A DNA stretch of 64,000 nt from an uncultured Clostridia bacterium (lineage in GTDB: Bacteria; Bacillota; Clostridia; Christensenellales; CAG-138), in the NCBI GenBank assembly GCA_934633985.1, contig CAKTYU010000001.1, positions 93,500 to 157,499 of the forward strand, read 5' to 3'. The position numbers and the translations under genes are program-made. Below, piece by piece: positions 8,797-57,807 of this stretch (its first letter is position 1; every line of letters begins with the position of its first letter). The notes under the pieces are model-generated. The model ran no database searches. It was not told the origin of the DNA and saw only the letters and a program-made list of their open reading frames with translations.

Positions 8797-9130
8797 CTTC
8801 TGCTCAGACAGAATAGGGGGCGCCGCCTAAAAAGCGGAGCCCCTTCAGTCTGTCGAAAAACCGTGGGGTTGTTAAGGGGCCGCAGCCCCTTAAGTTAATT
8901 CCGGCTTTGACGACATGTGCGTCAAAACGGATGAAAACCGGAGGTTTTCGCACTTTACGGGTTTTGCCGCCCGGGAACGAATGTGAGAGGCAAAACCCGC
9001 AAAAACTCGAAAAAGTGGTCTTTAGCCACTTTTTCGACACTCTGTAGGGCCCCGCCCGATAAAAGCGGGACCCCTTTAATATCGACATTTTTGCAGGGCA
9101 GCGTCACGCGCTGCCGAGCTTAAGGCGAAT
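8797..9130. repeat. Cluster of at least five consecutive imperfect hairpins (REP/MITE-like intergenic repeat array)
   Basis: Hairpins lie at about 8808..8862, 8870..8893, 8906..8928, 8960..9000, 9008..9036 (CGAAAAAGTGG/CCACTTTTTCG) and 9045..9075. A 37-nt block at 9001..9037 is identical to 14076..14112. The track ORF 8804..9088(-) is probably spurious. Confidence 0.7.
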
Positions 9131-9131
9131 A

Positions 9132-9335
9132 TTACATATCCGCGCAGGGATTATTGGCCGGGCCCATGTTCAGGGTAAGGCCGGCGGTTATGCTGCTTTG
9201 CAGAATGTTCAGGCATTCTCCGAAGCGCTGGAAGTGAACTATCTCGCGCTCCCTGAGGAAGCGCAGGGGATTGATTATGGCAGGGTCGTCCGTCAGCACC
9301 ATCAGGTGCTCGTAAGTTGCTCTCGCCTTCTGCTC
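9132..9335 (-). CDS. cotJC: cotJC 3' segment (codons 136-202 plus stop of a split manganese-catalase-family spore coat gene)
   Basis: This minus-strand frame lacks a start codon and is not in the track. It translates as EQKARATYEHLMVLTDDPAIINPLRFLREREIVHFQRFGECLNILQSSITAGLTLNMGPANNPCADM*. This is collinear with the remembered B. subtilis CotJC C-terminus (AAEEKARATYQWL...LRFLREREIVHSQRF). Confidence 0.85.
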   Translation of the reverse strand, partial: EQKARATYEHLMVLTDDPAIINPLRFLREREIVHFQRFGECLNILQSSITAGLTLNMGPANNPCADM

Positions 9336-9363
9336 TGCCGCTGTATCGAAAGGGCAACATTTT
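9336..9363. repeat. Element-terminal inverted repeat, left arm (attP half-site within attL)
   Basis: Minus-strand sequence AAAATGTTGCCCTTTCGATACAGCGGCA. It matches 24 of 28 positions with the inverted arm at 21834..21861. Confidence 0.85.
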
Positions 9364-9369
9364 TCCGCG

Positions 9370-10935
9370 CTAAAAGCTCCAGTGTATTTCCAAAGGCACC
9401 TCCCAGCTTCCGGGCGGGCGCTTTCCTATATATATGCGCTCTATCAGGGCTTCTACTGCGGCGCGGTCCAGCGATTCCAGCAGCAGCGGCAGCTTTTCCG
9501 GCTCCGGCGGGCGATACGCCCGCGCAAGCTCCGCCGCGCCGCTTGCAGCGGCTTGCGTTAGCCGCTGCTTTTCGGCGGAGATGCGCTTTAGGGCGTCTGA
9601 AAAGTCGGCCTCGCTCACGCGGCCCTCCGCCCTGTCCAAATAAAGACGCGCCAAGGCCGCGGAGCATGCCTCCACGCGCCCCTGAAGCCTTGATACGCGC
9701 TGGGATAAGTCCCGCGCCAGCTGCGGGCTGCCGCGCCGGAGATATAGCTCCTTCAGCATATTTTCATCGAGGCTTTCTGCGGCGATGCGGTTCGCCTCGC
9801 ACAGCACGGCCCTCTCCAGCCGCTTTACGGATATGAAGCCGCCGGGGCAGGCGTCCTTTGAAATATAGCGGCGGCTGCACCGAAGGTAGCCCTCGCCATG
9901 GCTCTTTGCGGAGCGCATGGGGCCCTTGCAGCAGGCGCAGTATACCCTGCCGGAAAAAGCGCCCGCCCTGTTGCCGGAAAAGGGGCGGGCCCTTTCGGAT
10001 ATGAGCTGCTGCACGCTCTGCCACAGCCTTTCATCTATTATCGCCTCGTGGGTGTTTTCCACCCTGAACCACAGCTCCGGCGGCCTTGGCACGCTGCGCT
10101 TGGTCTTGTAGGATGCGCTGCCGTACCTGCCCTGAACCATATTGCCGATGTAGACCTCATTTTTGAGCATACGGGATACCGTGCCGTACTGCCACAGCCC
10201 GCCGCCGGGGGAAGGTATGCCGCGGGCATTGAGCTCCCGGGCTATGGAGGTCTTTCCCCGGCCGAGCGCGAACAGCGAGAATATCTCCCGCACTGCGGCG
10301 GCCTTTTCATCATCTACTATGAGGCGTCCCTTACGGTGTGGGTCCTTGGCGTAGCCGTATGGCGCGGAGGAGCCTATGTGCAGCCCCAGCCTCCTGCGGC
10401 TGTCGAGCACGCTCTTTATGCTCTCAGACATATCCTCGAGGTACCACTCGTTCACGAGGCCGTTTATCTGGCGCGCCTTTTTGTTGCCGGGGTCGTCGGT
10501 GTCGCAGTTGTCCGCCACGCTCACGAAGCGTATGCCCCAAAGCGGGAAAAGGCCGTGTATGTACTTTTCCACCAGCTCTAACTCACGGGTAAAGCGGGAT
10601 TGGGTCTTACACAGTACTACGTCGAAGTTTTTTGCTTCCGCGTCCCGCAAGAGCCTGTTGAATTCCGGCCTGTTCCTGTCCGCACCGGCATAGTCGTCGT
10701 CGCTGTATATATCGTATATCTCCCAGCCCTGCGCGGCGGCGTACTGGGCGAGCAGCAGCTTCTGGTTCTGTATGCTTCCGCTGTCCGCGCCCTCCGCCCT
10801 GCCCTTGTCCTCCTCGGAGAGCCGGCAGTATATGGCGGCCCTCATGCGCCCCGCCTTTTGCACAGCATTTGCAGCCACCTTTCCGCCAGCAGCCTTTTGT
10901 CGGGAAGCCCGCCGCTTTTGAATACGCTTTTGCAT
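9370..10935 (-). CDS. Large serine recombinase (resolvase/invertase N-domain, recombinase domain and zinc-ribbon)
   Basis: Contains AAIYCRLSEEDK...SIQNQK...YSDDDYAGADRNRPEFNRLL...VVLCKTQSRFTRE (catalytic Ser region), then the recombinase domain, Cys pairs CACC...C and a C-terminal coiled coil. The stop is 6 nt from the terminal inverted repeat. The start is uncertain: the track's GTG at 10962 abuts the SD, so ATG 10935 or ATG 10845 is more likely. Confidence 0.9.
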   Translation of the reverse strand: MQKRIQKRRASRQKAAGGKVAANAVQKAGRMRAAIYCRLSEEDKGRAEGADSGSIQNQKLLLAQYAAAQGWEIYDIYSDDDYAGADRNRPEFNRLLRDAEAKNFDVVLCKTQSRFTRELELVEKYIHGLFPLWGIRFVSVADNCDTDDPGNKKARQINGLVNEWYLEDMSESIKSVLDSRRRLGLHIGSSAPYGYAKDPHRKGRLIVDDEKAAAVREIFSLFALGRGKTSIARELNARGIPSPGGGLWQYGTVSRMLKNEVYIGNMVQGRYGSASYKTKRSVPRPPELWFRVENTHEAIIDERLWQSVQQLISERARPFSGNRAGAFSGRVYCACCKGPMRSAKSHGEGYLRCSRRYISKDACPGGFISVKRLERAVLCEANRIAAESLDENMLKELYLRRGSPQLARDLSQRVSRLQGRVEACSAALARLYLDRAEGRVSEADFSDALKRISAEKQRLTQAAASGAAELARAYRPPEPEKLPLLLESLDRAAVEALIERIYIGKRPPGSWEVPLEIHWSF

Positions 10936-11014
10936 ATAGGTACTTTTTCCAAAAAACAACACCTCCCGTATATAGATATTACGGCGCGGCGGCGGTTATA
11001 ATACAGCCTGTGAT

Positions 11015-11029
11015 ATCTATATAATAGAT
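11015..11029. promoter_or_regulatory. LTTR-type dyad ATC-N9-GAT (T-N11-A box) in the recombinase/lysR divergent region
   Basis: ATCTATATAATAGAT is read directly from the sequence, about 100 nt upstream of the lysR start. A second 9-bp inverted repeat is TATAGATAT (10971..10979) / ATATCTATA (11014..11022). Confidence 0.35.
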
Positions 11030-11129
11030 AACGAATATTGCATTATATAAAATTTGAATAGATGAGCGATGGGCAAAGAATTTGCGTTGTTGTATACTAT
11101 ATGAGATTAAGGATTAAGGTGGGTTTGAT

Positions 11130-12092
11130 ATGGATATCAGCCTTAGGCAGCTTGAGGCATTTATAAAGGTAGCGGAGCACAGGAGCTTCTCCAAGGCGGG
11201 AGACGAGCTGTTTTTGAGCCAGTCTACCATAAGCAGCCATGTGGCGCAGCTTGAGCAGTCCCTTCAGGTGACGCTGATAAAGCGCCGTGAAAAGAAAAAC
11301 ATAGAGCTTACGGGGGAGGGGCAGAGGGCGTATCGCGCAGCGCAGGTGATAATCAACCAGGCGGAAATGCTGCAAAATATGTTCCGCAAGGAGGAGGCCG
11401 ACCAGCCCCTCATATCCATCGCCGCCTCCACGGTGCCATCGAGCTACATACTGCCGGGCATAATGACGGGTTTTTCCGACATCAGGCCGGAATGCAGGTT
11501 TTCCGTGCTGGATGGGGACAGCTCCTTCGCCCTTGAGCGGCTGCAAAACGGCGAGGCCGTGTTCGCGTTTGTGGGCACCAGCAGCCGCAAGACCGTATTC
11601 AGCTACCATACCGTCTGCCGGGACAGGATGGTGCTCATCACCCAGAACAACAAGGAGTTTGCCGAAAAAAAGGAAATGGGCGTGCTGGGCAAGGAGCTGT
11701 TGGAGTGGCCTATGATAATGCGGGAGAGCGGCAGCGGTACCCGCCGGGAGACGGACAACTACCTAAAGAGCATAGGAATGTCCTCGGCGGAGCTCAACGT
11801 GGCGGGCTATATGAACAACATCGAGGGGATAAAGAGCATGGTCGCCGCCGGAAAGGGCACCACCATACTTTCGGAGCGGGCGGCGGCAGACGCCATACGC
11901 GACGGGCGGGTGCTTTGCTTCGACCTCGAGGAGGACGGGCCGTATAGGGATATATACATCGCCTACCTCAAGAACCGCAGCTTCACACAGACGGAGCAGG
12001 CGTTTTTGAATTATGTTAGGAACCGCGGCGGCGAAAAGCCTAAGCAGAGCAAGAATAACAAAAACAACAAGAAAGCACTTAAGGAGGCATGA
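11130..12092 (+). CDS. LysR family transcriptional regulator
   Basis: N-terminal HTH LRQLEAFIKVAEHRSFSKAGDELFLSQSTISSHVAQLE, followed by a LysR substrate-binding domain and a K/N-rich tail. Confidence 0.9.
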   Translation: MDISLRQLEAFIKVAEHRSFSKAGDELFLSQSTISSHVAQLEQSLQVTLIKRREKKNIELTGEGQRAYRAAQVIINQAEMLQNMFRKEEADQPLISIAASTVPSSYILPGIMTGFSDIRPECRFSVLDGDSSFALERLQNGEAVFAFVGTSSRKTVFSYHTVCRDRMVLITQNNKEFAEKKEMGVLGKELLEWPMIMRESGSGTRRETDNYLKSIGMSSAELNVAGYMNNIEGIKSMVAAGKGTTILSERAAADAIRDGRVLCFDLEEDGPYRDIYIAYLKNRSFTQTEQAFLNYVRNRGGEKPKQSKNNKNNKKALKEA

Positions 12093-12098
12093 CGAAAA

Positions 12099-12707
12099 AT
12101 GGCAGACGTAAAGGTAAACGCGGTAGGCGAGCAGTGCCCTATACCGGTAGTAAAGGCTACCAAGGCGCTGGGCGAGTTTAAGGAAGCGGGCACCCTCGAG
12201 GTGCGGGTGGACAATGAAATAGCCATACAGAACCTTACCCGCCTTGCGGACAGCAAGGGACTGAAGAGCAGGAGCGAAAAGCTGGGGGATAATCTTTTCG
12301 CTATCACCATGGAGGTGAGCGGCCCGCTGACCATGGGCGGCGAGGATCTATCCTGCCATACTGACAGCAGGGGCGACTTTGTGGTGGCGATAGACGCGGA
12401 TACCATGGGCCGCGGCTCCGATGATTTGGGCCGCACGCTGATGAAGGGCTTTATCTTTGCCGTGTCCCAGCTCGAGGCCCTGCCCAAGACCATACTGTTC
12501 TACAACGGCGGCGCCAAGCTCACCGTCGAGGGCTCCGTATCGCTGGAGGATCTTAAGAGCATGGAGGCTCAGGGCGTGAACATACTAACCTGCGGCACCT
12601 GCCTTAACTTCTACGGCCTTACCGATAAGCTGGCGGTAGGCAGCGTCACCAACATGTATGTAATAGTAGAAACGCTGGCCAAGGCCGGAAAGGTCATCAA
12701 GCCGTGA
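12099..12707 (+). CDS. yedF: YedF-type sulfurtransferase-like selenium metabolism protein (TusA/SirA-like domain plus DsrE-like domain)
   Basis: The N-terminal VNAVGEQCPIPVVKATKAL carries the TusA CPxP motif. The C-terminal LFYNGGAKL...ILTCGTCLNFYG is DsrE/YedF-like. Confidence 0.75.
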   Translation: MADVKVNAVGEQCPIPVVKATKALGEFKEAGTLEVRVDNEIAIQNLTRLADSKGLKSRSEKLGDNLFAITMEVSGPLTMGGEDLSCHTDSRGDFVVAIDADTMGRGSDDLGRTLMKGFIFAVSQLEALPKTILFYNGGAKLTVEGSVSLEDLKSMEAQGVNILTCGTCLNFYGLTDKLAVGSVTNMYVIVETLAKAGKVIKP

Positions 12708-13837
12708 TCTACCTCGACAACGCCGCAACTACACTGCACAAGCCTCAGCAGGTGATAGACGCGGTGGTCCATGCCATGCAGTCCATGGGCAACTGCGCCC
12801 GGGGCACCCACGAGGAGGCCCTTGACGCGGCCCGCACCGTATACGACGCCCGCGTAAGGCTGGCGTCGCTTTTCGGCTGCCCCAGGGCGGATCACGTGGC
12901 CTTCACTGCGAACTCTACCGAGGCGCTGAACATCGCCATAAACGGGCTTATAGGCCCCGGCGACCATGTGATATCGACGGATCTCGAGCATAATTCCGTG
13001 CTGCGCCCGCTCTACCGTCTCCAGACGGAGCAGGGGACAGAGCTCAGCTTTGTGCCGGCGGATAAGCTCGGCAGCGTGGATTATGAGGACTTTGAGAGGC
13101 TCATAAGGCCGAACACGAGGGCAATAGTATGCACCCACGCCTCAAATCTCACGGGAACCGTGCTGGATATAGAGAAAATTGCAAAAACAGCCCGCAGCCA
13201 CGGCGCGCTTATGATAGTTGACGCCTCCCAGACGGCGGGCTGCTGGCCCATCGACATGAAAAAAATGGGCATAGACGTGCTGTGCTTTACCGGGCACAAA
13301 GGGCTTATGGGCCCGCAGGGCACCGGCGGCCTGTGCGTCAGGGAGGGCATAGAGATACGCCCCTTTAAGGTGGGCGGCTCCGGCGTGCAGTCATACAGCA
13401 GGACCCAGCCGGCGGAGTACCCTACCAGGCTGGAGGCGGGCACGCTGAACGGTCACGGCATAGCGGGGCTATGCGCTGCGGCGAGTTTTATATCCGAGAC
13501 CGGCGTGGAGGCCATACACGCAAAGGAGCGTTCGCTCATGCTGCGCTTTTATGAGGGCGTGAGGGCCGTCGAGGGCGTAACGGTATACGGCGACTTTACA
13601 AGGGACAAGACCGCCATAGTCGCGCTCAACATTCGGGATTACGAATCCGGCGAGGTGTCGTATGAGCTTTCGGAGAGCTACGGCATAGCTACCCGCCCTG
13701 GGGCCCACTGCGCCCCCCGTATGCACAAGGCCCTCGGCACGGATGAAACAGGCGCGGTGCGCTTCAGCTTTTCCTTCTACAATACGGAGGAGGAGACAGA
13801 CGAGGCGATAAGGGCTGTGGCGGAGCTTGCGCGATGA
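12704..13837 (+). CDS. Class V aminotransferase-fold cysteine desulfurase / selenocysteine lyase-like protein
   Basis: IYLDNAATT at the N-terminus, FTGHKGLMGPQGTGGL (PLP Lys) and RPGAHCAP (active-site Cys loop). A GTG start overlaps the yedF stop. Confidence 0.8.
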   Translation: MIYLDNAATTLHKPQQVIDAVVHAMQSMGNCARGTHEEALDAARTVYDARVRLASLFGCPRADHVAFTANSTEALNIAINGLIGPGDHVISTDLEHNSVLRPLYRLQTEQGTELSFVPADKLGSVDYEDFERLIRPNTRAIVCTHASNLTGTVLDIEKIAKTARSHGALMIVDASQTAGCWPIDMKKMGIDVLCFTGHKGLMGPQGTGGLCVREGIEIRPFKVGGSGVQSYSRTQPAEYPTRLEAGTLNGHGIAGLCAAASFISETGVEAIHAKERSLMLRFYEGVRAVEGVTVYGDFTRDKTAIVALNIRDYESGEVSYELSESYGIATRPGAHCAPRMHKALGTDETGAVRFSFSFYNTEEETDEAIRAVAELAR

Positions 13838-14070
13838 GAGAAAAAAAGCTTTGGCTTATAATAACCTTCCGTACAACTACGGCCGCCATGGCCATGGAGA
13901 GCCTCTGCGCCGGAAAGGGGCTGCCGGGGCGGCTAATACCCGTGCCGAGGGAGATAACCGCCGGCTGCGGAATGAGCTGGCGGGCTCCGGTGGAGAGCAA
14001 GGCTGAGCTCATCGAGGCAGCGGAGCAGGCCGGCATAGCCACGGACGGCGTATATGAAATAGTTATCTGA
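13834..14070 (+). CDS. DUF3343 (putative Se/S carrier-like) small protein
   Basis: 78 aa. The pattern LIITFRTTTAAMAMESLC...GRLIPVPREITAGCGMSW matches the DUF3343 pattern. The start overlaps the upstream stop. Confidence 0.7.
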   Translation: MREKKLWLIITFRTTTAAMAMESLCAGKGLPGRLIPVPREITAGCGMSWRAPVESKAELIEAAEQAGIATDGVYEIVI

Positions 14071-14075
14071 CCCGA

Positions 14076-14138
14076 AAAAACTCGAAAAAGTGGTCTTTAG
14101 CCACTTTTTCGAAACTATAAGGCCCCCGTAAGGGGGCC
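14076..14138. repeat. Second copy of the double-hairpin repeat seen at 9001..9075; probable bidirectional terminator
   Basis: AAAAACTCGAAAAAGTGGTCTTTAGCCACTTTTTCGA is identical to 9001..9037. It is followed by the hairpin AGGCCCCC-gtaa-GGGGGCCT. Confidence 0.75.
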
Positions 14139-14317
14139 TGTTTTACAGCGCGGAGACCAACCTGCCAGGTCGATGTTATGTGTATAATCAATAACGGGAA
14201 GCTCTTATCTGAAACGTGATTTGCAAAACAAAGGTTGCTTTGATAACATCTCTGTAGTTCCTATAAGGATGAGGCTTACTCATCCAGCTTTTATAATATC
14301 ATCAGGAGGTACTAACA

Positions 14318-14803
14318 ATGCACATCAAGAAGGAAATCAGTCCCAAGAAGGTACAAAAGGCAGCGGAAGATAATTTCCGCAACGGTTTTTTCTGCTGTGA
14401 GGCGCTGGTGCAGGCCATACGCGATAACTTTGAGCTGGATGTACCCAAGGAGGTAATAGCAATGTCCTCCGGCATGGCGGTAGGCGTGGGCGGATCGGGC
14501 TGTATCTGCGGCGCGCTCAACGGCGGCGTAATGGCGCTCGGTATGTTTTTCGGGCGCACTGAGCCCAATGGCCCGAAGGATCCCGTCGTAGTAAAGTGCA
14601 AGGAGCTGACCCATGAGCTGCACGACTGGTTCAAGGCCAACAACGGCAAGAACGCTATATGCTGCCGCGTGCTTACCAAGGAATTTGACATGGGCAAGGG
14701 CGAGCACAAGGAGCAGTGCATACGCTTTACCGGATTGGTAGCCTGGAAAGTGGCGGATATAATCGTGCGCGAGCTGGGCCTCGTAAATCTGGATGAGCAA
14801 TAA
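14318..14803 (+). CDS. C_GCAxxG_C_C family (putative redox-active) protein
   Basis: 161 aa. Contains FFCCEALVQA and GSGCICGALNGGVMALG, plus further Cys residues (CCRV, QCIRF). Confidence 0.8.
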   Translation: MHIKKEISPKKVQKAAEDNFRNGFFCCEALVQAIRDNFELDVPKEVIAMSSGMAVGVGGSGCICGALNGGVMALGMFFGRTEPNGPKDPVVVKCKELTHELHDWFKANNGKNAICCRVLTKEFDMGKGEHKEQCIRFTGLVAWKVADIIVRELGLVNLDEQ

Positions 14804-14829
14804 AGCCCGCTGAAAAAGAGGAAAAATAC

Positions 14830-15768
14830 ATGAAGAACGCGATCAAGAAAGTACCTATACCGATTTGCGGTGTTATGCTGGGCATGGCGGCGCTCGGCAA
14901 CCTTTTGCAGAGCTATTCCGAGGGGATAAGGTCTGCCTGCGGCATAGTTGCGGCGATACTTATGGTGCTGTTCCTGCTGAAGGTCATTATGTTCCCCCAA
15001 ATGATAAGGGAGGACATGAATAATCCCATAATGGCCAGCGTATCCGGCACCTTCTCCATGGCGCTGATGCTTCTGGCGGGTTATGCAAAGCCCTTCATGG
15101 GAGCCGCCGCCATGTATATCTGGTTCATAGCTATTGCGCTGCATGCGGCGCTGATAGTCTACTTTACCGTTAAATTCATATTCAAGCTGGATATGAAAAA
15201 GGTATTCGCAAGCTATTATATAGTTTACGTCGGTATAGCCGTAGCCGCCGTTTCCGCGCCTGCATTTGATCAGCAGGACATAGGCGCGGCTACCTTCTGG
15301 TTCGGCTTTGTTACATTATTGGCGCTGCTCGTGCTCGTTACCGTAAGGTATGCAAAGTACAAGGAGATACCCAACCCCGCAAAGCCCCTGTTCTGCATTT
15401 ACGCAGCCCCCGCAAGCCTCTGCGTTGCGGGCTATGTGCAGTCTGTGACCCCCAAGTCCTACGGCTTCCTTATGGCGATGTACGCTCTGGCGGCAGCGCT
15501 GTATGTAATCGCGCTGGTCAAGGCCATAGGCTTCCTGAAGCTGCCGTTCTTCCCCAGCTATGCGTCCTTTACATTCCCCTTTGTAATAAGTGCAATAGCC
15601 TCCAAGCAGACCATGGCCTGCGCCGCAAAGATGGAGATGCCGCTGCCCTTCCTCAAGTACGTGGTGCTCATTGAAACGATAATAGCCACAGTGCTGGTCC
15701 TGTATACGCTGGTGCACTTCATGGCGTTCATATTTACCAAGCCAAAGGAAGCGGCAGCCGCTAAGTAA
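14830..15768 (+). CDS. TDT family (tellurite-resistance/dicarboxylate, TehA/SLAC1-like) transporter
   Basis: 312 aa with about 10 TM segments. The N-terminal VPIPICGVMLGMAALGNLL is typical of TehA-like proteins. Confidence 0.7.
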   Translation: MKNAIKKVPIPICGVMLGMAALGNLLQSYSEGIRSACGIVAAILMVLFLLKVIMFPQMIREDMNNPIMASVSGTFSMALMLLAGYAKPFMGAAAMYIWFIAIALHAALIVYFTVKFIFKLDMKKVFASYYIVYVGIAVAAVSAPAFDQQDIGAATFWFGFVTLLALLVLVTVRYAKYKEIPNPAKPLFCIYAAPASLCVAGYVQSVTPKSYGFLMAMYALAAALYVIALVKAIGFLKLPFFPSYASFTFPFVISAIASKQTMACAAKMEMPLPFLKYVVLIETIIATVLVLYTLVHFMAFIFTKPKEAAAAK

Positions 15769-15792
15769 AAACCAAATAATGACCTGAAAACC

Positions 15793-15828
15793 GGGCGTTA
15801 TCGGCATGGGCCATAACGCCCCTTTTGT
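15793..15828 (+). terminator. Intrinsic terminator / palindromic repeat unit
   Basis: GGGCGTTAT...ATAACGCCC followed by CTTTTGTT. It shares GGCGTTATCGGC and ATAACGCC with the hairpin at 17508..17538. Confidence 0.65.
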
Positions 15829-15959
15829 TATCGCTTGTTTGAATTTTATCAGCATCGGGCGTAATGGTATAATAATATTATCAGGAAGTACGCGCCGACA
15901 GTCGGACGCGCCATTTAGAAGATCAAAAGCAAAAAACAAATCATACGGAGGTACTCTAA

Positions 15960-17237
15960 ATGTCAGATTATGTACAGATGTGGAAAGACCTGGGCATGGA
16001 TTTGGAAAACCATGATATGCTGTGCCAGGTGCTGCCTACCGCGGTGGGAGACGTGTTCCTCACCCAGCAGAACAGGCCGAAGGCCATGGATTTCTGGGAT
16101 CTGGTAATATCCGAGGTACACGGCATCCGCCCCGCCGAGCTCATAGCCGCGCAAAAGGAAGGCCGCAAGGTATTCGGCACCTTCTGCGTGTACGTACCGG
16201 ACGAGGTGGTCATAGCCGCAAACGGCATAGTCACAGGCCTCTGCGGCGGAAGCCAGTTCTGGGTGCCCGGCGGCGAGACCGTGCTGCCCAAGAGCACCTG
16301 CCCTCTCGTAAAGGCCTCGGTGGGCGCACGCCTCGGGCGCACCTGCCCCTTCTTCCGCATAGCGGATATGTACGTAGGAGAGACCACCTGCGACGCCAAG
16401 AAGAAGGCGTATGAGATACTGGGCGAGGACGTTCCCATGTATGTAATGGACGTTCCCCAGATGAAGCGCGAGAAGGATATTATAAAATGGAAGGACGAGA
16501 TAGCGGAGTTTGCGAAGAAGGTGGAGGAGTTCACCGGAAACAGCATAACCCCCGAAAAGCTGGGCGAAGCGATCAAGATAATAAACAACAGGCGCAGGGC
16601 TATGGCGAGGGTATACGATGCGCGCAAGTCCGAGTGCCTGCCCATATCCGGGCGGGACGTGCTGCTCATGACGCAGATATCCTTCTTTGACGATCCGGTA
16701 CGCTGCGCGGAGATGTGCAACAGGCTGGCGGACGAGCTGGAGCAGCGCATAAAGGACGGCGTATCCGTGGTTCCTGCGGGCACCAAGCGCATACTCGTCA
16801 CCGGCACGCCCATGGCGGTACCCAACTGGAAGCTGCATAATATAATAGAGACCAGCGGCGCGGCAGTAGTATGCGAGGAGATGTGTACGGGCACACGTTA
16901 TTTCGAGAACCTTGTGGACGAGACCAAGACTACGCTGGACGATCAGTTCATGGCGCTGTCCGAGCGGTACATGAAGACCAACTGCGCCTGCTTTACCCCA
17001 AACCATGGCCGCATAGATGATCTGCTCAGGATGGTGAAGGAATACAAGGTGGACGGCGTTATTGATTGCAGCCTGAAGTTCTGCTGCCTGTATGATACCG
17101 AGAAGTACAGCGTGGCCCGCGCCCTCAAGGAAGCCGGAGTACCGGTGCTCGGCCTTGAAACGGACTATGCCGACACCGACGCCGAGCAGCTCCGCACCCG
17201 CATAGGCGCGTTCATAGAGATGCTCAACAACAGATAA
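15960..17237 (+). CDS. 2-hydroxyacyl-CoA dehydratase / benzoyl-CoA reductase BcrC-BadD-HgdB family protein (double-cubane-cluster-protein type)
   Basis: 425 aa. Conserved Cys-rich motifs include CVYVPDE, TGLCGG, TCPL, GETTCDAKKK, CEEMCTG, CACF and SLKFCC. Family assignment is by remembered pattern. Confidence 0.7.
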   Translation: MSDYVQMWKDLGMDLENHDMLCQVLPTAVGDVFLTQQNRPKAMDFWDLVISEVHGIRPAELIAAQKEGRKVFGTFCVYVPDEVVIAANGIVTGLCGGSQFWVPGGETVLPKSTCPLVKASVGARLGRTCPFFRIADMYVGETTCDAKKKAYEILGEDVPMYVMDVPQMKREKDIIKWKDEIAEFAKKVEEFTGNSITPEKLGEAIKIINNRRRAMARVYDARKSECLPISGRDVLLMTQISFFDDPVRCAEMCNRLADELEQRIKDGVSVVPAGTKRILVTGTPMAVPNWKLHNIIETSGAAVVCEEMCTGTRYFENLVDETKTTLDDQFMALSERYMKTNCACFTPNHGRIDDLLRMVKEYKVDGVIDCSLKFCCLYDTEKYSVARALKEAGVPVLGLETDYADTDAEQLRTRIGAFIEMLNNR

Positions 17238-17503
17238 TGTCCGACGTAAGGTACTATGTGCTCTTTGCAAACTATGAGCAGGGGCTTAAGCTGCACGGCA
17301 TATTGGACGGCGCCGGGGTGGAGAACAGGATAGCGCCGGCTCCCCGCTGCATACAGGGTGAGCTTTCCTGCGGTATGTCGCTGCTCATCGAAAAGGAGCA
17401 TATCGGAGAAGCAAGGTCGGTCATAGCGGCCTCCGGGGCGGAGTATCACGATATCGTCCCGCTGGAGGGGCAGATGAAGGCGCATAGGGATAAGTATTGT
17501 TAG
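17237..17503 (+). CDS. DUF3343 (putative Se/S carrier-like) small protein, second copy
   Basis: 88 aa, with YYVLFANYEQGLKLHGIL...RIAPAPRCIQGELSCGMSL. The start overlaps the upstream stop (ATAATG). Confidence 0.65.
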   Translation: MSDVRYYVLFANYEQGLKLHGILDGAGVENRIAPAPRCIQGELSCGMSLLIEKEHIGEARSVIAASGAEYHDIVPLEGQMKAHRDKYC

Positions 17504-17507
17504 GGAT

Positions 17508-17543
17508 ACGGCGTTATCGGCTTTGCCGATAACGCCGTATTTA
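17508..17543 (+). terminator. Palindromic hairpin (weak terminator) related to 15793..15821
   Basis: ACGGCGTTATCGGC-tttg-CCGATAACGCCGT forms a 13-14-bp stem. The downstream U-tract (ATTT) is weak. Confidence 0.5.
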
Positions 17544-17641
17544 AGATCGCTTCTGTGAATTTGGAATAATGGCGTATAAATGCTATCATGTGTTGGCCGG
17601 GCTTATCCCCGGCAGAGAATAACGAGAAACGGAGAAAAACA

Positions 17642-18620
17642 ATGAAAAAGCTGATTGCTGTTATCATGGTGCTTGCCATGGCGATGAGCCTTGCAGCCTG
17701 CGCCGCCCCCGCAGCCCAAGAGACGACTGCCCCCGCGGAAGAAACCGCCGCCCCCGCCGAGGAGGCTGCCGCCCCCGCAGAGGAGGCCCCCGCGTTCCAG
17801 TCCTCCATACTGTTTTGCGGCTCCACCTCCCTTTATCCCATAATTTCCTCGCTGGCTTCCTCCTTTACCGAGGGCTTTGTGACCTGGGATAAGGTGGACG
17901 CTTCCTTCCCCGACAGCAATATTTCCATTTATGTAGCGCCCGGCGGCTCCGGCGTTGGCGTGAGCGCCGCTGTTGACGGCACTGCTGACTTCGGCATGCT
18001 GGCCCGCGATATAAAGGATTCCGAGATAGAGGCCCTTGGCGCGGACTATCAGGATTACGTAGTGGCGAAGGATGCGCTGACCGTGTCCGTAAACGCCGAG
18101 AACCCCATCTGCAAGGTCATTGACGACATGGATACCGATACCATCCGCAAGATCTTCGCCGGCGAGATAACCACATGGGATCAGGTTGACGCCACCCTGC
18201 CCGCAGAGGCCATCAACGTATACATCCGCGACCTTTCCGGCGGCGCATACGAGGTATTCCAGAAGTCCGTAATGGGCGACAGCGAGGTCACTCCCGCCGC
18301 CACCCAGTCCGCCTCCATGACCGAGCTGGCCACCAATATCGCCGGGCGATCCCTGGGGCATAGGCTATGCAGGCTTTGGCGCCTACAACAAGGCTAACGC
18401 CGAGAAGCAGGTGCTCTTTGCCATGAAGGTAGACGGCGTTGAGGCAAACGAGGAGAACATCATCAGCGGCGAGTACAAGATACAGCGTCCCGTAATGTTC
18501 GTTACCGGCAAGCCCGTATCCCCCGCGGCCCAGGCCTTCATAGACTACATCTTCTCCCAGACCGGTTACGATGTAGTAGTGAAGAACGGCTATATCCCCG
18601 CCTTTACCCCTGCCGCGTAA
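17642..18620 (+). pseudogene. pstS: Phosphate ABC transporter substrate-binding lipoprotein PstS, disrupted by a +1 frameshift near 18344..18346
   Basis: Lipoprotein signal MKKLIAVIMVLAMAMSLAAC. The track splits it into 17588..18397 and 18411..18620. Removing one G from GCCGGGCGAT restores ...TNIAGDPWGIGYAGFGAYNKA... Confidence 0.75.
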
Positions 18621-18705
18621 TACTTCTTACATCGGTATAATACGTGCTGTCGGCGCAAAAATACGCCGGCAGCATTTGTGCGTTATAAACAGGAGCATAT
18701 TTCTC

Positions 18706-19578
18706 ATGCAAAAGAGACTTGAAAGGCTGTTCAGGCTGTTCATAGGGCTGCTGGCGCTGCTTGCCGTCGCATCCCTCGCATTCGTGATATTTTTTATAGT
18801 AAAGGAAGCCCTGCCGCTCTTTGGCGAAGTCAGCATAGGTGAGCTTTTGTTAGGAAAGAGATGGATGCCCATTGCCTATGTGGGGGAGCCCTCCTTCGGG
18901 ATATTCAACTTTATAATGGCTACGCTATACGTATCGCTGCTGGCTATGATAATAGCCTCGGCGGTGGGCATAGGCGCGGCGCTGTTCTTGTCCTGCGTCG
19001 CGCCATTGAAGGTGCGTGAGCTAATGTATCCGTTCATAGACCTGCTGGCGGGCATACCCTCCGTGATATACGGCTTTATAGGGCTCGTGGTGCTGGTAAG
19101 GCTCTTTATGAAGCTGGGAGTACATACCGGCTCCTGCGTGCTGGCGGCGGCCATACTGCTTAGCGTCATGCTGCTGCCGTACATCATCTCATCGTGCAGC
19201 GAGACCATACTCAAGGCCAAGGAAAGGTACCTGCCCGCGTCAAACGCCATGGGGATAGACAAATGGCACGCCATAGCCTCCGTCATACTTCCCGCGTCGT
19301 GGGGCAACATACTGCTTTCCATGATACTGGCGATAGGCCGGGCCATGGGCGAGACAATGGCGGTCATGATGGTCATAGGCAATGCGAACCTTTTCCCCAC
19401 TCTGCTGGGAAAGAGCGAGACCATCGCCGCGGTGATAGCGCTGGAGATGGGCACGGCGGAGGCGGGCAGCCTGCATTACCACGGCCTGTACGCCGCGGGC
19501 CTCGTGCTGATGGTGCTGCTTTTCATAATAAACGCAGTTATCGCCGCGCTTAGGTCAAGGCTCATAAGGGAGGCATAG
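18706..19578 (+). CDS. pstC: Phosphate ABC transporter permease PstC
   Basis: Polytopic, with the EAA-like loop IGRAMGETMAVMMV. The start is moved to ATG 18706, downstream of AGGAG. Confidence 0.85.
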   Translation: MQKRLERLFRLFIGLLALLAVASLAFVIFFIVKEALPLFGEVSIGELLLGKRWMPIAYVGEPSFGIFNFIMATLYVSLLAMIIASAVGIGAALFLSCVAPLKVRELMYPFIDLLAGIPSVIYGFIGLVVLVRLFMKLGVHTGSCVLAAAILLSVMLLPYIISSCSETILKAKERYLPASNAMGIDKWHAIASVILPASWGNILLSMILAIGRAMGETMAVMMVIGNANLFPTLLGKSETIAAVIALEMGTAEAGSLHYHGLYAAGLVLMVLLFIINAVIAALRSRLIREA

Positions 19579-19579
19579 C

Positions 19580-20413
19580 ATGAAGGGAAGGATAACAAAG
19601 CTCTGGGCATACATAAGCATAGCGCTGGTGGCGGCCTCCATACTCTTCCTGTTCGCATACGTCTTTATACGGGGCGCGGGAACCATAACATGGGAGTTCC
19701 TTTCCCAGCCGCCCAAGGGCGCCATACTGGGCATGGAGGGCGGCGTATGGCCGGCCATAGCGGGCAGCCTGTGCTTTACGGCCGTGGCCATAGTGCTGGG
19801 CGGCATACCAGCCATAGCCGCCGCGCTTTATATAGTATTCTATTGTGAGAACAGGCGAATCGAGAAGGCGTTCCACACTGTAATACGCTGCATATCCGGC
19901 ATACCCTCCATAGTACTGGGCCTGTTTGCATACAGCTTCCTTGTGAGGGAGCTTCAGTGGGGCAGATGCATACTCTCCTCCGGCGTGGCGCTCGGCATAA
20001 TGATACTGCCATTTGTGGAGGTGAGGGCGGAGAAGGCGTTTCAGGAGCTTCCCAAGGCGGTAGTGCTTTCCTCGTATGCGCTGGGCTGTTCAAAAAGGTA
20101 TACGATAATGAAGATAGTGCTTCCCGCCTGCAAGGGCGAGCTCATATCCGGCCTTATACTGGGCGGGTGCTACGCCATGGGCGCAACGCCGCCGCTGATA
20201 TTTACGGGGGGCGTAGCATACGCGAGCGCGCCCACCAGCCTTATGAAGCCCGCCATGGCGCTGCCGCTGCACCTGTACCTGCTGCTGGCCCAAGGCGCTA
20301 CCTCCTTTGACATGGCATACGGCACGGCATTCGTGATGATGACGATAATACTCATAAGCAACCTACTGGCAACTATATACGCAGCAAGGAGTCACGCAAG
20401 ATGGAAAGCATAA
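19580..20413 (+). CDS. pstA: Phosphate ABC transporter permease PstA
   Basis: 277 aa and polytopic. LGCSKRYTIMKIVLPA is typical of PstA. Confidence 0.85.
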   Translation: MKGRITKLWAYISIALVAASILFLFAYVFIRGAGTITWEFLSQPPKGAILGMEGGVWPAIAGSLCFTAVAIVLGGIPAIAAALYIVFYCENRRIEKAFHTVIRCISGIPSIVLGLFAYSFLVRELQWGRCILSSGVALGIMILPFVEVRAEKAFQELPKAVVLSSYALGCSKRYTIMKIVLPACKGELISGLILGGCYAMGATPPLIFTGGVAYASAPTSLMKPAMALPLHLYLLLAQGATSFDMAYGTAFVMMTIILISNLLATIYAARSHARWKA

Positions 20414-21150
20414 TGCGAATTGAAGATCTGACGGCGGCATACGGCAAAAAGACGGTGCTGCACGACATAAGCCTCGACATACCGAAGCGGGGCATAACCG
20501 CCATAATAGGCCCTTCGGGCTGCGGCAAGACCACGCTTCTGCACTGTATGAACGGTATGCTTGGGGAAAACAGCGAGGCCGCGGTATCCGGCCATATCTA
20601 CCTTGGGGACAGGGATACGGCTAACATCCCCCCCGATGAGCTGCGCCGCAGGGTGGGGCTGGTGTTCCAGACCCCGTCGCCCTTCCCGTTTTCCGTTTAC
20701 AAGAACATGACCTATGGGTTAAAATACTACGGTAAGACCGGTAAGAAGGAGCTGGAGAGCGCGGTAATAGAAAAGCTCCGTACAGTCGGCCTGTACGACG
20801 AGGTAAAGGACGACCTGAACAAGAGCGCAATGAAGCTCTCCGGCGGGCAGCAGCAGAGGCTCTGCATCGCCCGCGCGCTCACGGTGGAGCCGGAGGTGCT
20901 TATGATGGACGAGCCCTGCTCGGCGCTCGACGTGAAGGCCACGGCGGTGATAGAGGATATGCTGTCGGCTATGAAGAAGGATTACTCCATAGTGATAGTC
21001 ACCCACAACATCGCCCAGGCAAAGCGCATAGCGGACGAGGTAGCGGTGATATTCGACGGCCGGCTGATAGAAAAAGGGCCGGCGGCGGAGGTGTTCGAGC
21101 TGCCGAAGCAGCAGCTCACCCGCGAGTTCCTTGCGGGGATATACGGATAG
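20413..21150 (+). CDS. pstB: Phosphate ABC transporter ATP-binding protein PstB
   Basis: GPSGCGKTT, VFQTPSPFPFSVYKN, LSGGQQQRLCIARAL and VTHNIAQAKRIAD are present. Start is at ATG 20413 or 20401. Confidence 0.9.
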   Translation: MRIEDLTAAYGKKTVLHDISLDIPKRGITAIIGPSGCGKTTLLHCMNGMLGENSEAAVSGHIYLGDRDTANIPPDELRRRVGLVFQTPSPFPFSVYKNMTYGLKYYGKTGKKELESAVIEKLRTVGLYDEVKDDLNKSAMKLSGGQQQRLCIARALTVEPEVLMMDEPCSALDVKATAVIEDMLSAMKKDYSIVIVTHNIAQAKRIADEVAVIFDGRLIEKGPAAEVFELPKQQLTREFLAGIYG

Positions 21151-21159
21151 GGGGAAGGC

Positions 21160-21627
21160 ATGATAAGGATAGACATACCCGGGCGGGATATGATCGAGAT
21201 AGAGCATGTGGTGCTGGATTATAACGGCACGATAGCCCTGGATGGAAAGCTCATAGAGGGCGCGGCGCGGCGCATAAGGGAGCTTTGCGGCAGCGCCCGC
21301 GTCTACATACTTACGGCGGACACCTACGGCACGGTTATGGCCCAATGCGGCGGCCTGGGCGCGGAGGTAAAGACCTTTCCGCGGGCCAACGCCTCGGAGT
21401 GCAAGGAGGAGATAGTGCGCGCCCTCGGCGGAAAGGCTGCCTGTATTGGCAACGGCTTCAACGACATAAGGATGTTCGACGCGGCGGAGCTTTCCATCGC
21501 CGTAATGGACGGCGAGGGAGTGTGCGCCGCACTCATAGCGCACAGCGACGTATTGGCGCGCAGCGCGGAGGAGGCCCTCGACCTGCTGCTTAAGGGGGAC
21601 AGGCTCCGCGCCACCCTCAGGACATGA
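21160..21627 (+). CDS. HAD-superfamily protein (soluble P-type-ATPase-like domain)
   Basis: 155 aa. Contains VLDYNGT (a DxxGT-like motif), ILTADTYG and IGNGFNDIRMF (the HAD GDGxND equivalent). Confidence 0.65.
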   Translation: MIRIDIPGRDMIEIEHVVLDYNGTIALDGKLIEGAARRIRELCGSARVYILTADTYGTVMAQCGGLGAEVKTFPRANASECKEEIVRALGGKAACIGNGFNDIRMFDAAELSIAVMDGEGVCAALIAHSDVLARSAEEALDLLLKGDRLRATLRT

Positions 21628-21799
21628 CGCGGCATACAAGTAAACTGATTGATAAAATAGATAACAGCCGACATGATATCTTAGCTTTGTATTTGTAATA
21701 AGCCCGAATAGGTGCTATTATAAATACAGATAAAGAACCGGCTGAAATAAAAACCTCTTATTCTTATTTCTTACTTGACCAATACAGCGGAGAAAGAAA

Positions 21800-21830
21800 C
21801 ACTGCCATGAAGGGCAGTGCTTCTTTTTTT
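21800..21830 (+). terminator. Intrinsic terminator closing the plus-strand pst/HAD operon just inside the element end
   Basis: CACTGCC-atgaag-GGCAGTG forms a 7-bp stem, followed by CTTCTTTTTTT. Confidence 0.6.
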
Positions 21831-21833
21831 CGT

Positions 21834-21861
21834 AAAATGTTGCCCTTTCAGCGCAGCGGCA
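21834..21861. repeat. Element-terminal inverted repeat, right arm (attP half-site within attR)
   Basis: Plus-strand sequence AAAATGTTGCCCTTTCAGCGCAGCGGCA. It is the inverted partner of 9336..9363, with 24 of 28 positions matching. Confidence 0.85.
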
Positions 21862-21863
21862 TC

Positions 21864-22268
21864 TGCTGCCATGTCCTCGGTAATATCGGTTATCGGGTCG
21901 CCCGTACACTGGAGAGAGGCGGCGGTGAAGGGTACGCCGTTGGGGTCGGCGGGGTATACGCCCTTGGAGTGCATGGTATAGTAGCCCATAAGCCCCGCGG
22001 CCTCGATCTCCTCCAGCGTCGCATCGCGCAGGCATTGGTGTATCATGGTGCCTATCATCTCCCAGTGGGCGAGCTCCTCGGTGCCTATGTCGTTGCAGGT
22101 GGCCTTTACCCGGTTATCCGGCATGGAGAAGCGCTGGGTAAGGTAGCGGCAGCCTGCGGCAAGCTCGCTGTCAGGCCCGCCGTATTGGGCCATGAGCGCC
22201 TTTGCCATGCGGGGGTTGGGCGTTGTTATGTTTACGGGGTATTCCAGCTTTTTCTGATAGATCCACAT
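21864..22268 (-). CDS. cotJC: cotJC 5' segment (codons 1-135 of the split manganese-catalase-family spore coat gene)
   Basis: Translates as MWIYQKKLEYPVNITTPNPRMAKALMAQYGGPDSELAAGCRYLTQRF...IGTEELAHWEMIGTM...GVPFTAASLQCTGDPITDITEDMAA, collinear with remembered B. subtilis CotJC. In the un-rearranged DNA the ORF reads on through 30 element-encoded codons to a stop at 21771. Confidence 0.9.
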
Positions 22269-22283
22269 TTAGTCTTTTCCTCC

Positions 22284-22532
22284 TTAATCCCAGGGCCATT
22301 CGCTGCAAACGTAGCAGCCCGCGGCGGTGGCGGAGTGGCCGAAGTTCATAAGCGGGCCGTACTGCTCCTCGTACGCCGCGATAAGCTCCTTGAGCCGGGC
22401 GGAGTAGTACAGGTAATCGCTGCGGGCGGCGTTGTCGCCGGGGTGGGTGTCGAGATACAGGTTAAGCTCTACTGAAACGAACTGATATTCGCTTATGGTT
22501 TTAAGCAGGTCACACTTGGTCATGTCGTTCAT
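22284..22532 (-). CDS. cotJB: Spore coat protein CotJB
   Basis: 82 aa. EYQFVSVELNLYLDTHPGDNAA...YEEQYGPL is the CotJB family pattern. Confidence 0.85.
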   Translation of the reverse strand: MNDMTKCDLLKTISEYQFVSVELNLYLDTHPGDNAARSDYLYYSARLKELIAAYEEQYGPLMNFGHSATAAGCYVCSEWPWD

Positions 22533-22542
22533 GGCAGCCTCC

Positions 22543-22788
22543 TTACATTACGAGCTCCGGAAAGAGCGTGCCGCTGATCAGGGCCTCGCAGGGGCAGTAG
22601 CCCTGAAGGTAGTCCTGATCCGGAAAGTATGCGGCAGCCAGGGGGACGCTGTTCGCGGCCGATTCGGGGTAGCCGCCGCTGTCCCAGCCGGAGCAGGGCC
22701 GGGTGCTTGCGGCGCCGGCGCCCACAAGTATTCCGCTGTCTGAGCAGACAGGCTCTGCACAGCGGCAGGTATTGTTTTTCAGATTCAC
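22543..22788 (-). CDS. cotJA: Spore coat-associated protein CotJA
   Basis: 81 aa with a GTG start after GGAGG. The C-terminal LAAAYFPDQDY...EALISGTLFPEL is the CotJA family pattern. Confidence 0.75.
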   Translation of the reverse strand: MNLKNNTCRCAEPVCSDSGILVGAGAASTRPCSGWDSGGYPESAANSVPLAAAYFPDQDYLQGYCPCEALISGTLFPELVM

Positions 22789-22874
22789 GGTTTTGCCTCC
22801 TTAGCGCCCCGCGATATGGTATTGCAGGGCATTTATATATGGCATAATATGCAGGGTATGTACGGTAAGGTTAC

Positions 22875-22901
22875 AAAAAAGGAGCCGGCATTGCCGGCTC
22901 C
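22875..22901 (-). terminator. Intrinsic terminator of the 22921..24660 gene
   Basis: On the minus strand, GGAGCCGGC-aat-GCCGGCTCC is followed by TTTTTT. Confidence 0.85.
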
Positions 22902-24975: not shown

Positions 24976-25428
24976 ATGAGGCTGTCCACAAAGGGCAGAT
25001 ACGGCCTGAAGGCCATGGTGGACCTTACCGTGGCATACGGCGGCGGATATGTGAGCATATCTACCCTGGCGCAGCAGCAGGGCATAAGCGAATCCTACCT
25101 TGAGCAGCTTATCGCCTCCCTTAAAAGGGCGGGGCTCGTCGAATCCGTAAGGGGCGCCCAGGGCGGATACGCGCTGTCCCGAAGGCCGGAGGATATAGAC
25201 GTGGGCGAGGTGCTGCGCGCGCTTGAGGGCAGTACCTCTATAATGGACTGCGTGGATGTGAACGGCGCAGGCTGCGGCAATGCGTGCAGTTGCAGCGCGA
25301 GGCCGCTTTGGCTAAGGCTGCAAAACAGGATAGACGAGGTGCTGGATACGACTACACTCGCCGATATGGCGGCGGATTATAAAACACAGTTGAGACGCTT
25401 TGATGGCGCTCAGGAGAGGAAAAACTGA
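24976..25428 (+). CDS. Rrf2 family transcriptional regulator (IscR/CymR-like)
   Basis: Starts MRLSTKGRYGLKAMVDL. Contains a Cys cluster CVDVNGAGCGNACSC. It lies upstream of nifS/nifU. Confidence 0.9.
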   Translation: MRLSTKGRYGLKAMVDLTVAYGGGYVSISTLAQQQGISESYLEQLIASLKRAGLVESVRGAQGGYALSRRPEDIDVGEVLRALEGSTSIMDCVDVNGAGCGNACSCSARPLWLRLQNRIDEVLDTTTLADMAADYKTQLRRFDGAQERKN

Positions 25429-25429
25429 C

Positions 25430-57049: not shown

Positions 57050-57502
57050 ATGGCAGGAATTCTTAACAAGCTGATGGACTTTATCGGCATCGAAGATGTG
57101 GACGATGAAGCGTACAACGAAGATTACTTCAACGACGAGCAGCAATCTATGGCTGAGGACAACGTAGTCAGCCTCGGCAACCGCGGCAGGAGAAAGACCG
57201 CCGCCGGCAATAACGTGGTAAGCCTTCCCACGGCGGCGCCCATGAAGATGGTGGTGTATCATCCCGTAAGCTATGAGGATACCCAGAACATCATCGACAA
57301 CCTTAAGAGCCGCAAACCCGTTATCGTCAATATGGAAGAGCTGGAGATCGACTGCGCACAGCGCATACTGGACTTCATGGCGGGCGCTATCTATGCCCTC
57401 GATGGGACCATATACAAGATTTCCCGCGGTATATTCGTCGTAGCTCCCACCAACTATGACGTTATCGGCAACGATGACCGTACCGACGTTGACGTGATCT
57501 GA
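57050..57502 (+). CDS. sepF: Cell division protein SepF
   Basis: Starts MAGILNKLMDFIG and contains PVSYEDTQNIIDNLKSRKPVIVNM and FVVAP. Confidence 0.9.
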   Translation: MAGILNKLMDFIGIEDVDDEAYNEDYFNDEQQSMAEDNVVSLGNRGRRKTAAGNNVVSLPTAAPMKMVVYHPVSYEDTQNIIDNLKSRKPVIVNMEELEIDCAQRILDFMAGAIYALDGTIYKISRGIFVVAPTNYDVIGNDDRTDVDVI

Positions 57503-57573
57503 TAAAGGCTGCATTTCAGACTGTGCGGGGCTTGCCCCCGCACAGGGCTGCAACTGCGAAACTCAGAGGTAGC

Positions 57574-57780: not shown

Positions 57781-57807
57781 AGGGAAAAAGCATAATTGAG
57801 AATAAAC

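Follow-up and report, generated by a model that had tools for sequence, protein, structure and literature searches.

Why should a run of eight genes, several of them from families tied to selenium or sulfur trafficking, lie inside the gene for a spore-coat protein, and do they work together? The question is raised by a 64,000-nucleotide stretch of the genome of an uncultured Clostridia bacterium (Christensenellales, CAG-138; contig CAKTYU010000001.1, positions 93,500–157,499), hereafter the window, in which an element of 12,528 bp, at about 9334–21866, splits the spore-coat gene cotJC. An earlier note on this DNA had suggested that the eight genes, running from a LysR regulator to a second DUF3343 gene, may be a self-contained module for the uptake, reduction and delivery of selenium, sulfur or tellurium. 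Our analysis gives a different answer: the region is probably a composite of three cassettes, carried on a long-domesticated element free of phage genes. The assignment that we favour with similar confidence, judged from family membership and gene order, makes the first cassette a selenium-metabolism-associated relay set, the third a double-cubane cluster protein (DCCP) with a dedicated DUF3343 partner, and the second an unrelated insert, with low-potential selenide release as the proposed output of the selenium genes.

All eight open reading frames (ORFs) are on the forward strand, at positions that agree with the earlier note, and each of the families named there held when scored against curated model cutoffs. 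The first gene (11130–12092) encodes LysR_Se, a selenium-metabolism-associated regulator that scores 288 bits with NF040786, LysR_Sec_metab (cutoff 250). It is followed by yedF (12099–12707; TIGR03527, 207 bits, cutoff 110), which joins a TusA-like domain with a CPIP motif, matched by the Pfam TusA model, to a DsrE-like domain with a CGTC motif, and by a class-V pyridoxal phosphate-dependent enzyme of the cysteine desulfurase/selenocysteine lyase type (12704–13837), which belongs to the EF2568 family (TIGR01977, 428 bits, cutoff 377) and carries HK at residue 198 and GAHC at residue 333. The first DUF3343 (Se_S_carrier) gene, at 13834–14070, encodes an AGCG motif (PF11823, 87 bits, cutoff 25). 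The middle pair consists of a putative redox protein of the C_GCAxxG_C_C family (14318–14803; PF09719, 97 bits, cutoff 27; TIGR01909), which is the cysteine form and has no in-frame TGA, and an anion transporter of the TDT/SLAC1 superfamily (14830–15768; PF03595 SLAC1, 75 bits, cutoff 27.9).

The last two genes are DCCP (15960–17237), whose product is a predicted 8Fe-9S protein (NF040772, 493 bits, cutoff 350), and a second DUF3343 gene (17237–17503; PF11823, 48 bits, cutoff 25). DCCP matches the Carboxydothermus structures 6ENO and 7YYL over its full length (E ~1e-139), and in the alignment of residues 4–422 with 7YYL_C the cluster-ligand cysteines are conserved. Haft's seven-cysteine spacing, applied as a strict regular expression, was off by one or two residues, and the direct alignment with 7YYL was used in its place. 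The second DUF3343 protein falls into a DCCP-linked subfamily marked by an invariant Cys45 within an L-x-CG-x-SL motif and by an invariant C-terminal RD-x-YC.

Which of these genes belong together can be read from the surroundings of DCCP in other genomes. We surveyed 80 DCCP loci, one per species, with orthologues 85–95% identical, and scored the neighbours within 10 kb; the queries were the window proteins and two families verified with NCBIfam, the DCCP activase (TIGR00241, acyl-CoA dehydratase-type) and SelD (TIGR00476). A DUF3343 gene lay directly 3′ of DCCP in 79 of the 80 loci. An EF2568-family lyase was nearby in 61, the activase in 57, YedF in 46, SelD in 31 and a LysR gene in 19, and all nine LysR proteins sampled pass NF040786. 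Two orders recurred, SelD-YedF-DUF3343-activase-lyase-DCCP-DUF3343 and SelD-LysR-activase-YedF-lyase-DUF3343-DCCP-DUF3343; in most relatives the DCCP–DUF3343 pair directly follows the genes of the first cassette, in the company of activase and SelD. At some loci, for instance L006, L009 and L014 of Pseudoflavonifractor, DCCP–DUF3343 stands alone, and the 10 kb around it hold neither desulfurase nor YedF. Neither C_GCAxxG_C_C nor TDT was found within 10 kb of DCCP at any of the 80 loci, even at E = 10.

The presence of a DCCP-type protein in this company, which the earlier note had called unexplained, therefore turns out to be the rule, since DCCP is most often placed beside desulfurase, YedF and DUF3343, an arrangement already visible in the literature. 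In Slackia, YedF, the selenocysteine lyase family, DUF3343, LysR_Se, the activase and an HgdB-like gene are adjacent (PMC5322559, Table 1), DCCP and its activase, DCCP-R, have been drawn as putative selenium genes (PMC10418091), and 955 of 970 strong NF040772 DCCPs come from SelD-positive assemblies (Haft & Gwadz, doi 10.1101/2022.07.06.499078). The association with selenium that had been proposed for the cluster stands, given the selD genes inside orthologous clusters and the uniform result for LysR; nor is this a cluster found mainly apart from selD, as the same 31 loci show.

The survey also revealed a marked difference in conservation between DCCP and its neighbours. The DCCP orthologues remain 85–95% identical across Oscillospiraceae, Lachnospiraceae, Phascolarctobacterium, Christensenellales and Desulfocucumaceae, and the neighbouring lyase, YedF and DUF3343 proteins are 45–75% identical; the gap indicates that DCCP is under extreme constraint or else has recently spread by horizontal transfer.

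The C_GCAxxG_C_C–TDT pair is an independent module of two genes, of a type seen in Lachnospiraceae, which in this lineage was inserted between the first and third cassettes. The identity of TDT homologues drops from 100% within the species and 94% in a sister directly to 74–77% in Lachnospiraceae, and the pair was intact in all five unrelated Lachnospiraceae-type contexts that we inspected, which include Roseburia hominis and Dorea. The flanks of these five contexts are unrelated to one another and hold no selenium genes. A LysR gene lies near the pair in four of the five; two of these LysR proteins were scored, and both are of CidR-like type and fall below the NF040786 cutoff. An operator conserved upstream of C_GCAxxG_C_C was considered and rejected, as the upstream regions of the window and its sister element L084 have no motif in common with those of Lachnospiraceae. 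We found no function for C_GCAxxG_C_C in the literature; against solved structures it gives a weak match, confined to the N-terminal part of split-Soret cytochrome c. The transporter falls far below the cutoffs for TehA (61 versus 342 bits) and TIGR00816 (31.5 versus 237) and has no solved-structure relative detectable by sequence; by its sequence it is placed in the Pfam SLAC1 superfamily only and is no TehA equivalog.

Within the element, the gene order resolves into three predicted transcription units, lysR-yedF-lyase-DUF3343, C_GCAxxG_C_C–TDT and DCCP–DUF3343, because of terminator-like hairpins (14081–14139, 15794–15820 and 17510–17536) and the small gaps inside the first unit, where lysR and yedF are 6 nt apart and the yedF/lyase and lyase/DUF3343 junctions overlap by 4 nt each. 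Two terminator-like hairpins (14070–14139) close this unit and mark the left edge of the C_GCAxxG_C_C–TDT insertion relative to L001, a metagenome-assembled genome (MAG) of the Acutalibacteraceae. The third unit is flanked by a 53-nt direct repeat, a hairpin and promoter-like unit whose left copy is at 15794–15846 and whose right copy, at 17510–17562, precedes pstS and contains a perfect palindrome, TTATC-N9-GATAA; both copies are on the forward strand. A promoter-like site at 15846–15873 lies ahead of DCCP, and in L001 the same hairpin/promoter-like unit stands ahead of DCCP.

Three natural genotypes of the cotJC element, with clean cassette boundaries and flanking repeats, mirror this division. 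The selenium core is present in all three. In L001 the C_GCAxxG_C_C–TDT pair is absent (the sequence equivalent to window positions 14067–15930 is lacking) and DCCP–DUF3343 is present; in L084, L085 and L087 the pair is present and DCCP–DUF3343 is absent (positions 15827–17556 lacking), the L084 deletion falling between the two copies of the 53-nt repeat; the window has both.

These findings bear directly on the suggestion that all eight genes form one self-contained module, in which TDT would import selenite, tellurite or a sulfur oxyanion, C_GCAxxG_C_C and DCCP would reduce it, and YedF, the lyase and DUF3343 would deliver the product. In its favour, the eight genes lie side by side in one orientation, TehA belongs to the TDT superfamily, TIGR01909 has selenoproteins among its members, and purifying selection has preserved the C_GCAxxG_C_C–TDT pair within the selenium cluster of two lineages. 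Nevertheless, the eight-gene order, whose recurrence had been put forward as a test, was found in this species only; the pair occurs elsewhere without selenium genes, and the nearby LysR proteins scored in two of those contexts are CidR-like; terminator hairpins and separate promoter-like sites bound it; and its transporter fails the TehA and TIGR00816 models. For a role of TDT in chalcogen uptake we found nothing in favour beyond its position. SelD and the ATP-dependent activase, both usual members of the cluster, are missing from the window and from the 10 kb to its left, which contradicts self-containment. We consider a single module of eight genes very improbable and treat the three cassettes separately.

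Some smaller features of these intergenic regions deserve mention. A 47-nt hairpin-forming repeat occurs in two copies only in the window, 96% identical, at 14070–14116 and, outside the element, at 8995–9041, between an ATP-binding cassette (ABC) operon and the 3′ end of cotJC. The copy at 14070 forms the first of the two hairpins that close the first transcription unit, and the repeat is possibly a little mobile element resembling a terminator. The TTATC-N9-GATAA palindrome in the hairpin before pstS (17514–17532) is the sole such site in the 64 kb, and the hairpin before DCCP in L001 has equal spacing. The intergenic region between recombinase and lysR holds an ATC-N9-GAT palindrome, a LysR-type box, at 11015–11029 (+), which is a candidate operator only. 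Such boxes are not enriched across the window (8 found versus 12 expected); two of the eight lie within the element, both in promoter regions, which we regard as a lead only.

The claim that this cargo is not of phage origin, and that it rides on an element interrupting cotJC, is upheld by the anatomy of the element. The 3′ fragment of cotJC (9129–9338, reverse strand), recognized by translation, from the reconstituted ORF and by a match of the called fragment to PF05067, encodes the C-terminal third of this Mn-catalase family protein and ends where the left junction has its TCTGC core; the 5′ fragment (21862–22268, reverse strand) encodes the N-terminal two thirds, and upstream of it lie cotJB (22284–22532) and cotJA (22543–22788). 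The ends of the element are inverted repeats of 28 nt, the left arm (attL side) at 9336–9363 being 86% complementary to the right arm (attR side) at 21834–21861, with the TCTGC core at 9334–9338 and 21862–21866 respectively. Joining the flanks at the core gives an intact CotJC of 202 residues; aligned with the uninterrupted CotJC proteins of five metagenome contigs, it is colinear through the junction (…TEDMAAEQKAR…). The predicted joined site, attB, is CGCCTTCTGCTCTGCTGCCATGTCCTC, and the predicted circle junction, attP, is TTTCAGCGCAGCGGCATCTGCCGCTGTATCGAAA; the latter has no match in IMG/VR. Metagenome matches to the attB pattern were rejected as an empty site of this species, being intact cotJC genes of unrelated organisms only.

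At the left end lies a large serine recombinase (9370–10962, reverse strand) with Resolvase, Recombinase and Zn_ribbon_recom domains (phrog_95 integrase, 354 bits); its true start is likely to be at 10845, giving a protein of 491 residues that begins MRAAIYCRLS. It is the only protein of the element to match a PHROG with a named phage function (integrase), and its closest viral relatives in IMG/VR are 26–37% identical. The rest of the cargo, at 17588–21627 on the forward strand, comprises pstS, pstC, pstA, pstB and a gene for a HAD-like protein of 155 residues. The statement that the element holds no selD, selenoprotein gene or molybdenum hydroxylase proved correct. This anatomy fits that of elements intervening in sporulation genes, and by analogy with them the element would be excised during development, in the mother cell.

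If the cargo were decaying hitch-hiker DNA without current function, it should show it. A fixed frameshift in pstS, the loss of cassettes in sister elements and the absence of selD and activase could all be read in that way. However, all eight genes, pstCAB and the HAD-like gene are intact ORFs, and in comparisons with L001 and L084 the ratio of non-synonymous to synonymous substitution rates (dN/dS) is 0.02–0.17 for every cargo gene with the exception of pstS, at a dS of 0.55–1.26; LysR gives 0.02–0.09 and DCCP 0.035. Decay is thus largely refuted and we regard it as scarcely credible. The cargo dS is like that of the flanking ABC-transporter and cotJB genes and, because of this and of the low dN/dS, we conclude that the element is old and vertically inherited and that its cargo is kept by selection. 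In pstS (17588–18620), a +1 frameshift at about 18345, an extra G (GCCGGGCGATCC versus GCAGG-CGATCC in L084), splits the gene; it is identical in the window's own contig (L081) and in one of the same species from a different sample (L082). The gene seems to be a pseudogene that has become fixed; pstC, pstA and pstB stay under purifying selection. The lysR, yedF, lyase and DUF3343 genes are also under purifying selection in the L084-type elements that have lost DCCP, which implies that their role is not solely to serve DCCP.

What might the selenium genes do? In the scheme that we favour, the lyase would move selenium (or sulfur) from selenocysteine or cysteine onto its active-site cysteine, and YedF and DUF3343 would act as carriers that pass the atom along on cysteines. 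The DCCP-linked DUF3343 protein would then hand it to DCCP which, charged by an ATP-hydrolysing activase encoded elsewhere, would carry out a low-potential reduction to give selenide for a SelD also encoded elsewhere. LysR_Se would control the first transcription unit. Were excision confined to the terminal mother cell, as the analogy with skin and gin suggests, the cargo would, during vegetative growth, behave like any other genes of the chromosome. The Se(0)/HSe− couple is very negative and would fit an ATP-driven low-potential reductase. The specific proposal that DCCP and its DUF3343 partner form a carrier–reductase pair, releasing selenide at very low potential from protein-bound Se(0) or perselenide for SelD at the expense of ATP, is a tentative one, which we rate as possible and somewhat unlikely as it stands.

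Several observations weigh against a selenide-releasing role. Searched by tblastn with cluster-derived queries verified by NCBIfam, the window and the 10 kb beyond its left end contain neither selD nor the DCCP activase, and function would have to rely on genes in trans; tRNA-Sec and Rfam elements are likewise absent from the window. The missing selD and activase, together with the presence of C_GCAxxG_C_C–TDT, are what is peculiar to the window, although the want of an activase is not exceptional, since, among the 59 survey loci whose upstream sequence extends for 6 kb or more, 13 have no adjacent one either. The lyase, at 366 bits, is below the cutoff of 525 of the strict SclA model (NF040779, Enterococcus faecalis type) and is thus, as judged from sequence, no strict SclA. 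DUF3343 has no selenium-specific subfamily, and sulfur stays possible as its load (PMC5322559). We found no physiological or experimental substrate of DCCP in the literature, excision is argued by analogy only, and the gene order fits either direction, DCCP serving selenium supply or selenium and sulfur supply serving DCCP.

Some of the same points would be expected if the first cassette were a sulfur (persulfide) relay in this host, for thiolation or Fe-S chemistry for example, and the family names misled: the absence of selD from 74 kb of contig, the lyase score, and DUF3343 carriers that may bear either element. On the other side, the LysR protein passes a selenium-associated equivalog model, selD lies in 31 of the 80 orthologous clusters, and published correlations tie both LysR_Se and NF040772 to SelD-positive genomes. 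Furthermore, just outside the element, at 24976–26590, a regulator of the Rrf2 family is paired with another class-V cysteine desulfurase (IscS/NifS-like), so that the host has a housekeeping desulfurase apart from the EF2568-family enzyme of the element. A relay devoted to sulfur is, in our estimation, quite improbable.

The main rival to selenide release turns the direction of transfer around. The lyase, YedF and DUF3343, with SelD where present, would be maturation factors that deliver bridging sulfide or selenide to the cofactor of DCCP, whose substrate would then be unrelated to selenium supply. The desulfurase-family gene lies directly upstream of DCCP in most loci and the DUF3343 gene, as noted, almost always directly downstream, and a selenium-bridged analogue of the 8Fe-9S cluster has been listed as a formal possibility explaining the correlation between DCCP and SelD (Haft & Gwadz, doi 10.1101/2022.07.06.499078). 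Nevertheless, loci such as the three of Pseudoflavonifractor keep DCCP–DUF3343 without desulfurase or YedF nearby, L084-type elements keep LysR, YedF, lyase and DUF3343 under selection after the loss of DCCP, and the solved DCCP structures are described as 8Fe-9S. We think maturation unlikely, and retain release of selenide by DCCP and its partner as our working proposal.

Beyond the selenium genes, the association of the DCCP cluster with a phosphate-type ABC transporter or a HAD-like protein may not be due to chance. An unrelated MAG of the Clostridia (L039:3780–7586) has a pstSCAB and HAD-like operon, 49–58% identical to that of the window, beside its DCCP cluster, and in another locus (L004:2844–3308) the HAD-like gene stands alone, upstream of YedF.

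Comparison of the surroundings of the element revealed further differences. L001 shares its flanks with the window, the ABC transporter on one side and Rrf2/IscS on the other; relative to these, the segment that runs from the 3′ part of cotJC through the element to the 5′ part, cotJB and cotJA is inverted (L001:4783–16718 versus window 9180–22880). This is either a 13.7 kb inversion between species or a misassembly of the MAG. Beside cotJA, on the reverse strand at 22921–24660, an ORF of 579 codons with stretches rich in Lys, Ala and Glu has no Pfam match, and the annotation of the public contig lists it as a gene; L084 has other genes in its place. Towards the right end of the window (57500–64000) the GC content rises to ~0.62 and there is no convincing long ORF over 6.5 kb; the five longer ORFs (58287–63615) have no Pfam match, and no tandem repeat, tRNA or Rfam match was found in this region.

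The window adds context to known families of the selenium relay rather than a new system, and it overturns no expectation. It presents a selenium cluster that purifying selection maintains as the metabolic cargo of an element, not of phage type, that interrupts cotJC, and a modularity at the level of cassettes, with three natural genotypes bounded by a repeated terminator–promoter unit. For the orphan DCCP family it offers a testable lead, a DUF3343 protein with two invariant cysteines encoded 3′ of nearly every DCCP surveyed, usually together with desulfurase, activase and SelD, and it sets C_GCAxxG_C_C–TDT apart as an uncharacterized cassette of its own, widespread in gut Lachnospiraceae. 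Should DCCP and its partner indeed act as carrier and reductase, a physiological substrate would be at hand for the double-cubane enzymes, so far orphans, and a missing step in the formation of selenide by anaerobes would be filled; in that case the three natural types of cotJC element, with DCCP alone, with TDT alone and with both, would offer a ready comparative test.

The link between YedF, lyase, DUF3343 and LysR and that between DCCP and selenium are already published. What is new is the location, in a domesticated, phage-free element intervening in cotJC, the mosaic of cassettes with its inserted C_GCAxxG_C_C–TDT pair, and the sharpened pairing of DCCP with DUF3343. The first cassette resembles the neighbourhood of YedF, the selenocysteine lyase family (EF2568/SclA), DUF3343 and LysR_Se (Lin et al., 2015, PMC5322559) in that the same four families are present, tightly spaced and above curated cutoffs, and in that orthologous loci carry selD in the same cluster; it differs in that selD, selA and selB are not adjacent, in its place on a cotJC-intervening element, in the unrelated two-gene insert and in a lyase below the SclA cutoff. 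The DCCP gene corresponds to that of the DCCP/DCCP-R system of Carboxydothermus hydrogenoformans (6ENO, 7YYL), with a full-length match, the cluster cysteines and a score in the class above 400 bits that is almost always found in SelD-positive genomes; by contrast, the window has no gene for the activase (DCCP-R), which is adjacent in 57 of the 80 orthologous loci. For a downstream DUF3343 partner of DCCP with a C-terminal cysteine, full-text literature searches found no precedent. The C_GCAxxG_C_C–TDT pair has the order and spacing seen in Lachnospiraceae (Roseburia hominis, Dorea, Bariatricus), with TDT proteins 74–77% identical and distantly related to TehA, SLAC1 and Mae1, but the copy in the window lacks a LysR gene of its own and lies inside a selenium cluster.

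As for the element itself, it differs from skin (in sigK), SPbeta (in spsM) and gin (in gerE) in its target, cotJC, and in its metabolic cargo of selenium relay, anion-transporter cassette and pstSCAB; we identified no gene for a recombination directionality factor in it. XisF-type developmental excision in Anabaena is a more distant analogue. With skin, SPbeta and gin it shares a split late sporulation gene, a large serine recombinase at one end, and inverted-repeat ends with a short common core, so placed that the ORF is whole again once the flanks are exactly joined. The best parallel is gin, the non-prophage element of gerE (PMC5595907), for the cotJC element is likewise without phage structural genes.

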